Origin: Escherichia coli
Lineage (GTDB): Bacteria; Pseudomonadota; Gammaproteobacteria; Enterobacterales; Enterobacteriaceae
Assembly (NCBI RefSeq): GCF_024700885.2
Contig: NZ_CP117016.1
DNA length: 64,000 nt
Strand: one strand, 5' to 3'
The notes beneath the pieces are model-generated. The model was given only the letters and a program-made list of their open reading frames with translations, did no database searches and was not told the origin of the DNA. Of this stretch, positions 3,644 through 4,768 are shown piece after piece (within the stretch, counting starts at the first letter, position 1; each line of letters starts with the position of its first letter). Position numbers and translations under genes: made by a program.

Positions 3644-4768
3644 ATGGAATCTAATGCACTAAAAAAAGCACGACTATTTATAAATGACATAAAATATTGT
3701 GTTGAAAACTTTAATATCGATTCAACTTTATATACCGCTTTCAAGCCAAGTGATATTGGTGTTAAAGGAGATGAAAGCAATACAATATATGTTGCTGACG
3801 GTAAGCTTCCGGAAAAACTGATAATTGCTTTTGGAGAAAAGGCAAAAGACAGTAAAATATTTATTGGAAAAAATGTAAAATGCAGGGGATCGAGAATTGT
3901 AATAACTCACGGTGAAAGCCTTTGTTACATCGGAAATAACTCACAACTAAATAATGTAACTATGCATATATGGTGCAAATGGGATTTTGTAGTGGTTGGA
4001 GAAGGTGTATCAGTTACCTCAACAAGTAATTGGACTACTGGAATAAACCCTGGCAATCCTTGTAACGGCATTATTATTGGTGATCACTGCCTTATGAGCC
4101 AAGAAATATCTATTAGACCTGCAGATGGACACCAAATTATCGAACTCACCACGCGAAAAGTAGTCAACGCTGCAACATCACCTATTATAATCGAACCATA
4201 TTGCTGGATCGGACAGCGCACAGCAATACTAAAAAATGTAAGAATTGGTGCATGCTCCATCGTTTCACTTGGTGCTGTAGTTACAAAATCATGTAAAAAA
4301 TTCAGCGCGCTAAGTGGCGTACCAGCAAAAGCAAGATGCATTGAAGGAAAAATGTGGCTAAGAAACAATGGGGAAGAAGCCAAGAGAATAATGCTTATGT
4401 ATGAAAAAAGATTTGCAGGCACAGCAGCACAGCAGCACAGCAGCACAGCAGCACAGCAGCACAGCAGCACAGCAGCACAGCAGCACAGCAGCACAGCAGC
4501 ACAGCAGCACAGCAGCACAGCAGCACAGCAGCACAGCAGCACAGCAGCACAGCAGCACAGCAGCACAGCAGCACAGCAGCACAGCAGCACAGCAGCACAG
4601 CAGCACAGCAGCACAGCAGCACAGCAGCACAGCAGCACAGCAGCACAGCAGCACAGCAGCACAGCAGCACAGCAGCACAGCAGCACAGCAGCACAGCAGC
4701 ACAGCAGCACAGCAGCACAGCAGCACAGCAGCACAGCAGCACAGCAGCACAGCAGCACAGTGATATAA
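3644..4768 (+). CDS. hexapeptide-repeat (left-handed beta-helix) acetyltransferase with C-terminal (TAAQQHSS)n tail
   Basis: C-terminal part of catalytic domain IIIEPYCWIGQRTAILKNVRIGACSIVSLGAVVTKSCKKFSALSGVPAKARC matches LacA/CysE/NeuD-type acyltransferases; AT-rich; opposite strand to the virion operon (moron position). Confidence 0.7.
   Translation: MESNALKKARLFINDIKYCVENFNIDSTLYTAFKPSDIGVKGDESNTIYVADGKLPEKLIIAFGEKAKDSKIFIGKNVKCRGSRIVITHGESLCYIGNNSQLNNVTMHIWCKWDFVVVGEGVSVTSTSNWTTGINPGNPCNGIIIGDHCLMSQEISIRPADGHQIIELTTRKVVNAATSPIIIEPYCWIGQRTAILKNVRIGACSIVSLGAVVTKSCKKFSALSGVPAKARCIEGKMWLRNNGEEAKRIMLMYEKRFAGTAAQQHSSTAAQQHSSTAAQQHSSTAAQQHSSTAAQQHSSTAAQQHSSTAAQQHSSTAAQQHSSTAAQQHSSTAAQQHSSTAAQQHSSTAAQQHSSTAAQQHSSTAAQQHSSTVI
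4421..4760. repeat. perfect tandem octanucleotide tract (ACAGCAGC) x ~42.5
   Basis: 340 nt with no interruption, period 8; lies in the 3' part of the acetyltransferase ORF; no stop codon in any of the six frames. Confidence 0.95.

Follow-up and report, generated by a model that had tools for sequence, protein, structure and literature searches.

A prophage-borne NeuO-like acetyltransferase gene with a variable 3' octanucleotide tract in Escherichia coli with the K18_K22 capsule locus: a candidate determinant of the K18 antigen

The acetyltransferase gene and its octanucleotide tract

The 64,000-nucleotide stretch of Escherichia coli DNA analysed here (contig NZ_CP117016.1, hereafter the window) contains a 39-kb prophage, located at about 1,500-40,450 between yfgI and guaA, and, close to one of its ends, an open reading frame (ORF; 3644-4768, + strand) for a predicted O-acetyltransferase. 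The ORF encodes 374 aa, namely, 259 non-repeat residues followed by (TAAQQHSS)n and terminating in ...STVI. The catalytic domain, aa 1-259, is encoded by positions 3644-4420 (+), and the predicted disordered C-terminal tail by an octanucleotide variable-number tandem repeat (VNTR) at 4419-4760 (+), the unit of which can be written as GCACAGCA or ACAGCAGC. Tandem Repeats Finder (TRF) reported this VNTR as a period-8 array of 42.8 perfect copies with 100% matches and 0% indels, and in a direct reading of the window (ACAGCAGC)n is unbroken over 4421 to 4760, in agreement with a preliminary description of this DNA, in which an uninterrupted octanucleotide tract had been placed at the end of the ORF.

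All three forward frames of the ACAGCAGC unit encode rotations of TAAQQHSS, the single cyclic octapeptide recognized previously, and the reverse strand of the tract is likewise free of stops (AAVLLCCC). The idea that freedom from stops in all frames is remarkable was rejected, because 65% of all octamers share this property; the open frames of the tract are accordingly unremarkable. The perfect array of 342 nt cannot be due to chance, its notable features being length and perfection, and in E. coli it is unusual for arrays of perfect octamers to reach lengths of 16 to 52 units. Four more ORFs run through the tract, at 4084-4797 (-), 4358-4750 (-), 4395-4742 (-) and 4401-4763 (+); they are a mechanical by-product of the stop-free repeat and not evidence for genes. 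In an analysis of hairpin propensity, the tract DNA folded no more stably on either strand than dinucleotide shuffles (z = -0.3 and -0.1), a test that is uninformative, because the shuffled repeat retains the composition of the repeat.

Perfect ACAGCAGC units were found at the matching site, in differing copy numbers, in six other independent complete assemblies, and the explanation of the tract as an assembly artefact was rejected as unlikely for this reason. Several database alleles labelled as partial terminate within the repeat; these are read here as short-read contigs broken inside a genuine long repeat.

Residues 1-259 are intact in all natural alleles, and the repeat begins at codon 260, past the catalytic domain, so that slippage is unable to truncate this domain. 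The endings of the protein are fixed by the post-tract region 4761-4830 (+), which was delimited from the sequence, allele translations and hydropathy. In the window, 0, 2 or 23 codons lie beyond the tract before a stop, depending on the frame (TGA at 4761-4763, TAA at 4766-4768 and TAG at 4828-4830), and in the flank lineage of the window the gain or loss of units rotates the C-terminus between ...TAAQ, ...STVI and ...HS-DIIIIMAVMRGHYILFIIALTY. The DIIIIMAVMRGHYILFIIALTY ending, a read-through of the terminator region, consists of 22 aa (D..Y) and is hydrophobic: its Kyte-Doolittle hydropathy averages 2.3 over 19 aa. One of the frames in the second flank lineage continues for 62 residues beyond the repeat (RNNYNN...SQRLR), overlapping the tail-fibre gene. 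Copy numbers equal to 0, 1 and 2 modulo 3 are all present among complete genomes. The term 'frame-immune', applied to the tract in the preliminary description, is appropriate for the catalytic domain and for the repeat peptide, which is independent of frame, but not for the C-terminal ending, which toggles between three forms.

Enzyme family, predicted structure and homologs

Profile searches gave a weak match to Pfam Hexapep (E 0.0015) and partial matches to the NCBIfam models of NeuD, WcaF, WbbJ and Maa, far under their cut-offs. The best match among PDB sequences in the phmmer search was NeuO (3jqy, E 2.8e-18), with OatWY (2wlc, E 8.7e-6) in fourth place. The AlphaFold2 (AF2) model, for which 43 homologs were used, has high confidence across residues 1-260, with a predicted local distance difference test score (pLDDT) above 90 for 189 residues; in the AF2 monomer model, the (TAAQQHSS)n tail has a pLDDT below 55. 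In the Foldseek comparison with the PDB, NeuO and OatWY filled the top eight places (3jqy E 1e-10, 2wlg E 2e-8, TM 0.77-0.79), and every match was a left-handed beta-helix (LbH) protein.

The catalytic residues of NeuO are His147 and Trp171 in the 3JQY numbering (PMC3046976). They align with His163 and Trp188 of the window enzyme, both of which are invariant in the 43 homologs, as is the nearby Arg158. The predicted fold and the aligned catalytic residues show the first 259 aa to be an LbH O-acetyltransferase domain of the NeuO/OatWY type, which bears out the earlier proposal of a hexapeptide-repeat acyltransferase; the closest solved relative is NeuO.

Homologs with 45-72% identity are typically 255-290 aa long, and no repeat tails were found in 17 homolog sequences that were read and in 8 homolog loci scanned with TRF. 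In Pantoea, Castellaniella and one further relative, the homologs are encoded within ABC-transporter capsule loci (KpsMT, KpsCS, KpsDE), where they adjoin TagF-like polyol-phosphate polymerases; the homolog with 71% identity is located after genes for CDP-ribitol synthase and a 383-aa protein. A more distant homolog, with 60-80% nucleotide identity, is present in 50 further E. coli genomes and, in both genomes examined (2/2), sits in kps region 2 beside a TagF-like polymerase; one such kps-encoded homolog of E. coli has 51% protein identity over 248 aa.

Some side observations concern these loci. In kps region 2 of E. coli THO-008 (L016:11465-13954), a fusion protein of 829 aa includes the homologous acetyltransferase domain. 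In the Pantoea capsule locus, the gene directly upstream of the homolog (L011:7091-7996) has a faint match to Phage_RBD_prop (PF21311), a family that residues 509-611 of the tail fibre encoded in the window also match weakly, which may point to a connection of proteins from capsule loci with the receptor-binding propellers of phages.

Copy-number variation among genomes

Megablast searches of 5,426 complete E. coli genomes located the acetyltransferase locus in 10 of them. Repeat units, counted by anchoring on the unique sequence preceding the tract, with an error of about one unit possible for long-read assemblies, numbered 52 in E100341, 50 in SW070919, 43 in MLI114, 42 in the window, 22 in PAR and 16 in AST205, and EC0026B contains about 2.5 imperfect units, GCACAGCAG-ACAGCAGC-ACAGC. 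Among the seven independent loci available as complete sequence (the window and six genomes), six have 16 or more units. The window and MLI114 show 0 differences in 5.9 kb of flanking sequence, yet have 42 and 43 units, respectively; E100341 and AST205 are separated by 1 SNP in 5.9 kb of flank, yet differ by 36 units (52 vs. 16). Judged between genomes, the copy number of the tract outpaces point mutation by far, and lengths from about 2.5 to 52 units across related prophages with near-identical flanks agree with the slippage-type variable repeat suggested previously.

The 90%-identity protein cluster comprises 125 distinct members, which differ almost solely in the tail; those listed are 264 to 365 aa long, bar two fragments. 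The exact 374-aa allele of the window has no match on record. The commonest database allele is an unexpanded form of 267 aa, found in 71 contigs, although long tracts are under-sampled by short-read assemblies. The unexpanded alleles carry an imperfect 7+8+5-nt proto-repeat, which a single base change would perfect; they look ancestral, and the sequence of events would have run from the proto-repeat to the long array. Five derivatives of EC0026B were considered as a source of evidence for instability in the laboratory and dropped, since all have the 2.5-unit allele and are silent on long tracts.

Prophage context of the gene

The backbone of the prophage has 96-97% nucleotide identity to the Uetakeviruses phiv142-3 and phiV10. 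In the phiV10 record, the gene oac, annotated as 'acetylates the host O-antigen; functions in superinfection immunity', occupies the slot between the gene of a holin-like membrane protein and the tail fibre gene, on the strand opposite to the late genes. The acetyltransferase gene of the window shares both this slot and this strand. The orientation opposite to the virion genes, the convergence on the tail fibre gene and the AT-richness had all been noted in the preliminary description and are evident from the ORF layout and base composition: the G+C content is 32-41% in the acetyltransferase gene and the receptor-binding region of the tail fibre gene, vs. 48-54% in the prophage backbone.

Immediately upstream of the conversion slot lies the lysis cassette (1666-3484, -), which encodes an Rz-like DUF2514 protein, a GH19 endolysin, a holin and a holin-like membrane protein, as assigned from the ORFs, the RefSeq annotation of identical loci and the 96-97% identity to phiV10/phiv142-3. 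A sigma-70-like promoter candidate, TTGCCT-17-TATAGT (3544-3572, +), matches the consensus about 70 nt 5' of the acetyltransferase start, and a Shine-Dalgarno sequence, AAGGTG, was read at 3633-3638 (+); expression of the gene in the lysogen would proceed from this consensus-matching candidate. Between the convergent acetyltransferase and tail-fibre genes, the terminator scan detected a GC-rich hairpin (4775-4799; -13.2 kcal/mol, z = -3.7), which is likely a bidirectional intrinsic terminator.

The tail fibre, or tailspike (4819-7893, -; 1024 aa), was divided, by comparison with PHROGs, PDB and Pfam, into an N-terminal adaptor of the Uetakevirus kind (residues 1-212), a receptor-binding domain in the centre and a Peptidase_S74 chaperone domain at the C-terminus. 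In PDB and Pfam no informative match to the central domain was detected; the earlier designation of the protein as a depolymerase-type tailspike finds its basis in the adaptor and the chaperone domain. The idea of an endosialidase directed at K1 was rejected, because the tailspike matches endosialidases in the chaperone domain only and a region 2 of the K1 type is absent from the hosts.

The acetyltransferase gene is carried by two prophage lineages, the tail fibres of which have unrelated receptor domains. The receptor-binding region of the window tail fibre was found in 4/5,426 genomes, all with the K18_K22 locus. As side observations, the two unrelated receptor-binding regions that accompany the same acetyltransferase are located at 4819-7300 of the window and at L006:4054-6400; the two fibres are 99% identical over the 209-aa N-terminus, unrelated in their centres and 31% identical in the S74 domains, and full-length copies of either type were confined to genomes with the K18_K22 locus (4 and 6 records). 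The two types might recognize acetylated and non-acetylated capsule, or capsule and O-antigen. The confinement of both fibre types and of the acetyltransferase gene to such hosts is suggestive of a gene that alters the receptor of its own phage and excludes superinfecting phages. In SW070919, an IS3 element (L002:6922-7465) lies directly 5' of a shortened tail-fibre coding sequence (CDS) of 825 aa, so that this prophage is possibly defective; its 50-unit tract is kept nonetheless.

No copy of the acetyltransferase gene was found in sequenced phage records by tblastn against all of them. The nearest sequence among these records was NeuO of CUS-3, followed by weaker matches in two Acinetobacter records and one Enterococcus record.

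Host capsule locus and the difference between K18 and K22

Region 2 of the kps locus in E100341 contains genes of a TagF-like polymerase, CDP-ribitol synthase and a 378-aa protein; no acetyltransferase genes and no sialic acid genes are present. The CDP-ribitol synthase and the 378-aa protein are 73% and 49% identical, respectively, to their orthologs next to the 71%-identical homolog of the prophage enzyme. Compared with the proteins of EC958, which was typed as K100 (bioRxiv 10.64898/2025.12.15.689991), the proteins of the host region 2 show 97.09, 98.91 and about 80-84% identity. The identities published for K18_K22 vs. K100 are 97.10, 98.91 and 82.13% (supplement of PMC13171606), and the host locus is assigned to the K18_K22 type because these values are reproduced. 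The TagF-like polymerase of EC958 (L018:1690-5012) is annotated as two CDSs of 546 nt and 2,742 nt, not as one 3.3-kb gene; either a frameshift or a divided annotation could account for this.

Region 2 of the E100341 type, at 99% identity or more, was found in 18/5,426 genomes, and all 10 carriers of the acetyltransferase gene (10/10) fall among these 18 K18_K22-locus genomes. Counted as distinct strains with the K18_K22 locus, 6/14 carry the gene. Related prophages occupy the yfgI-guaA site in about 393 genomes, and carriers are limited to the 10 with the K18_K22 locus. A role in lysogenic conversion, supposed in the preliminary description, fits both the position of oac in the same slot of phiV10 and this restriction of the gene to one capsule type.

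Three host backgrounds are distinguishable among the carriers by the annotated yfgH/yfgI products. The non-lysogen AST19 has an empty yfgI-guaA site and has both the K locus and a yfgH frameshift in common with the lysogen AST205. As a marker of host background, yfgH is annotated as frameshifted in E100341, AST205, EC0026B and AST19 (L001, L004, L006 and L023), and is intact in the window (374-892), MLI114, SW070919 and PAR.

According to a recent study (PMC13171606, 2026), K18 is an acetylated form of K22, and the gene responsible is not known; the K18 and K22 clusters are 100% identical and lack a candidate acetyltransferase, the gene probably being outside the locus, so that the two types are genetically indistinguishable. 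In the same study, the difference between K2a and K2ab was tied to a frameshift in a kps gene of the acetyltransferase type (PMC13171606). On circumstantial grounds, the prophage acetyltransferase is a strong candidate for the missing determinant of K18 vs. K22. No description of this gene was found in full-text searches, the coverage of which leaves out most subscription journals; the gene and its association with the K18_K22 locus are reported here as new.

Comparison with known systems

The closest parallel is NeuO of prophage CUS-3 in E. coli K1. Both are prophage-borne soluble LbH capsule O-acetyltransferases or, in the present case, candidates for such, with the catalytic His and Trp conserved; both genes adjoin the tailspike or tail-fibre region of the phage and contain an intragenic VNTR, the unit of which is not a multiple of 3 and is repeated tens of times to encode a disordered low-complexity peptide. 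The identity of NeuO to the window enzyme is about 36% over an 81-aa tblastn segment. In neuO, however, a 5' heptanucleotide repeat follows the start codon, and two of every three copy numbers truncate the protein (on/off), whereas here the octanucleotide repeat is 3' and there is no off state; the window gene thus fails the defining on/off feature of NeuO, because its repeat is 3' of the catalytic domain. The preliminary description had drawn this same parallel and the same difference in repeat architecture. The NeuO peptide consists of basic N-terminal RLKTQDS heptads and the present one of uncharged TAAQQHSS, and the host capsules are K1 polysialic acid and the product of the K18_K22 ribosyl-ribitol phosphate locus, respectively. 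CUS-3 is P22-like, in contrast to the Uetakevirus prophage described here. The system is NeuO-like in most respects; the phage family, the repeat unit and its peptide, and the capsule are different. OatWY, the other fold relative of the window enzyme, is a meningococcal capsule enzyme.

The O157 O-antigen O-acetyltransferase Oac of phiV10 is comparable in context, the backbone of its phage being 96-97% identical and the gene having the same slot, strand and convergence with the tail fibre gene, but it belongs to an unrelated protein family (tblastn of the window enzyme gave no match in phiV10) and has no repeat tract. Oac is an O-antigen acetylase of the membrane type.

FutA and FutB of Helicobacter pylori are, like the enzyme described here, glycan-modifying enzymes in which the C-terminal repeat number varies and the catalytic domain is kept active. 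Their repeat unit is 21 nt of DNA, giving in-frame units of 7 residues with a proposed role in dimerisation, unlike the 8-nt unit and the predicted disordered peptide of the window gene, and on/off switching is due to a separate 5' poly-C tract. The repeat number of FutA/FutB is variable inside strains as well as from one strain to another and changes the product (PMC2583950).

The kps region 2 acetyltransferases of polyol-phosphate capsules in E. coli, for example the putative acetyltransferase of K2ab, belong to the same family (51% identity over 248 aa) and are likewise encoded beside TagF-like polymerases, but their genes are part of the chromosomal capsule locus itself and lack a repeat tract. 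The assignment of the locus L015 to K2 is an inference from gene content.

Proposed function and alternative explanations

On balance, it is probable that the gene encodes a lysogenic-conversion O-acetyltransferase of a phiV10-like prophage, which acetylates the K22-type capsule to the K18 type, and that the 3' repeat varies only the tail and its endings. In the mechanism proposed, the conversion gene of the phiV10-like (Uetakevirus) prophage would encode a soluble LbH O-acetyltransferase of the NeuO/OatWY family, the presumed substrate of which, the group 2 ribosyl-ribitol-phosphate capsule of the host, would most likely be acetylated in the cytoplasm, turning a K22-type into a K18-type capsule. 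The octanucleotide repeat would have grown from the 2.5-unit proto-repeat and would change rapidly in copy number, presumably by slipped-strand mispairing, altering the length of the disordered (TAAQQHSS)n tail between 0 and about 140 aa and rotating the three endings. With the repeat placed behind the catalytic domain and open in every frame, slippage would never truncate the enzyme; acetylation would thus be expected to be 'on' in every lysogen, and the tail, if it had an effect, would act in a graded manner instead of an on/off one.

Several points weigh against this reading. The link to K18 is circumstantial, because the reference genomes of K18a, K18ab and K22 (GCA_977946865, GCA_977946875 and GCA_977947955) are outside the set of genomes searched, and shared descent of the carrier strains may inflate the association with the capsule locus. 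The proposed oxyanion-stabilising Arg137 of NeuO aligns with Gln153. The unexpanded allele is the commonest, with the under-sampling mentioned above, so that the tail appears dispensable for an intact gene. In addition, the tail leaves the helix at its C-terminal end, and the active site of NeuO is at the N-terminal outlet (PMC3046976), which argues against a simple NeuO-like role of the tail in acceptor binding.

As for the substrate, it is unlikely that the target of the enzyme is a small molecule or a glycan other than the K18/K22 capsule, such as O-antigen units, with the K-locus association resulting from host ancestry or phage host range. The homolog P0006, encoded outside any capsule locus beside a GDSL esterase, the O-antigen acetylase in the same slot of phiV10, and the two different tail-fibre receptor-binding domains that accompany the gene are consistent with such a substrate. 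However, the closest structural relatives, NeuO and OatWY, are both capsule enzymes, polyol-phosphate capsule loci were found in 4/5 non-E. coli homolog contexts and in two E. coli kps loci, and of the 393 genomes in which a related prophage occupies the yfgI-guaA site, none but the 10 with the K18_K22 locus carry the gene. Group 2 capsules are polymerised in the cytoplasm, and a soluble cytoplasmic LbH enzyme would suit them, as is expected from knowledge of the pathway.

For the repeat itself, a neutral origin is quite conceivable, though not the probable outcome: a one-base change would have perfected the proto-repeat, after which a runaway microsatellite expanded, its tail being without phenotype and tolerated past the catalytic domain. 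The imperfect proto-repeat of the unexpanded alleles, the 65% share of stop-free octamers, owing to which an open frame needs no selection, the occurrence of all three frames and a broad length range with no evident preference, and the predicted disorder of the tail are all in line with this explanation, but long perfect arrays, with as many as 52 units, are present repeatedly in two flank lineages, and long simple-sequence repeats are otherwise very rare in E. coli, as far as is known. Moreover, the sole well-studied repeat in a related enzyme, that of neuO, is functional (PMC3046976). It seems doubtful that the number of TAAQQHSS units acts as a rheostat, tuning catalytic efficiency, stability or abundance of the enzyme and thereby giving graded O-acetylation of the capsule across a population. 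NeuO activity does rise linearly with heptad number, its poly-psi domain being also disordered (PMC3046976), the number of C-terminal heptads of H. pylori FutA/FutB acts as a 'molecular ruler' (PMC2583950), and long arrays of 16 or more units prevail in 6/7 independent completely sequenced loci; but the residues of the tail (T, A, Q, H, S) bear no charge, in contrast to the Arg/Lys heptads of NeuO proposed to bind the polyanion, the tail would lie opposite the inferred active site on the modelled beta-helix, the unexpanded allele predominates in databases, and none of the homologs read or scanned has a repeat tail. A tolerated, at most modulatory tail is rated above a rheostat, because the tail is uncharged and opposite the active-site end of NeuO and a tail-less allele is common.

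A three-state C-terminal switch, in which copy number modulo 3 would set either a free end (...TAAQ or ...STVI) or a 22-aa (D..Y) hydrophobic, transmembrane-like segment borne on a flexible linker and alter membrane association with the capsule assembly complex, is highly unlikely. The hydropathy of DIIIIMAVMRGHYILFIIALTY, a similar ending in the second flank lineage and natural alleles with the hydrophobic ending in SW070919, P0081 and P0076 speak for it; yet the segment is an AT-rich read-through of the terminator, in which Ile, Leu and Phe codons are expected from composition, and it contains Arg and His in the middle. The combined proposal, in which the gene is the missing K18 determinant and a never-off 3' VNTR sets both the tail length and a modulo-3 hydrophobic anchor-like ending, giving graded or localisation-dependent acetylation, is improbable.

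If the proposed conversion of K22-type to K18-type capsule is correct, the prophage gene would allow in silico K-typing to separate K18 from K22. With K1/CUS-3/NeuO as the first, it would also be the second example of a group 2 capsule antigen of E. coli being altered by a prophage, and the repeat, with an architecture mirroring that of NeuO, would provide a natural experiment on hypermutable repeats as rheostats or terminal-sequence switches vs. binary switches.

Other features of the prophage

At the far end of the prophage, the integrase gene (39114-40364, -) was identified by an NCBIfam integrase domain (E 1e-42), followed by the flanking host gene guaA (40557-42134). At 33493-33631, three overlapping tandem arrays, with units of 12, 24 and 18 nt in which ATCCCnnnnnGGGAT-type dyads occur, are situated within the ORF 33114-33929 (-), the product of which has a DnaT-like C-terminus; these arrays look like lambdoid-style origin iterons inside a replication gene. 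The prophage also contains a tRNA-Arg gene (25570-25646) with the anticodon TCT, which reads the rare AGA codon.

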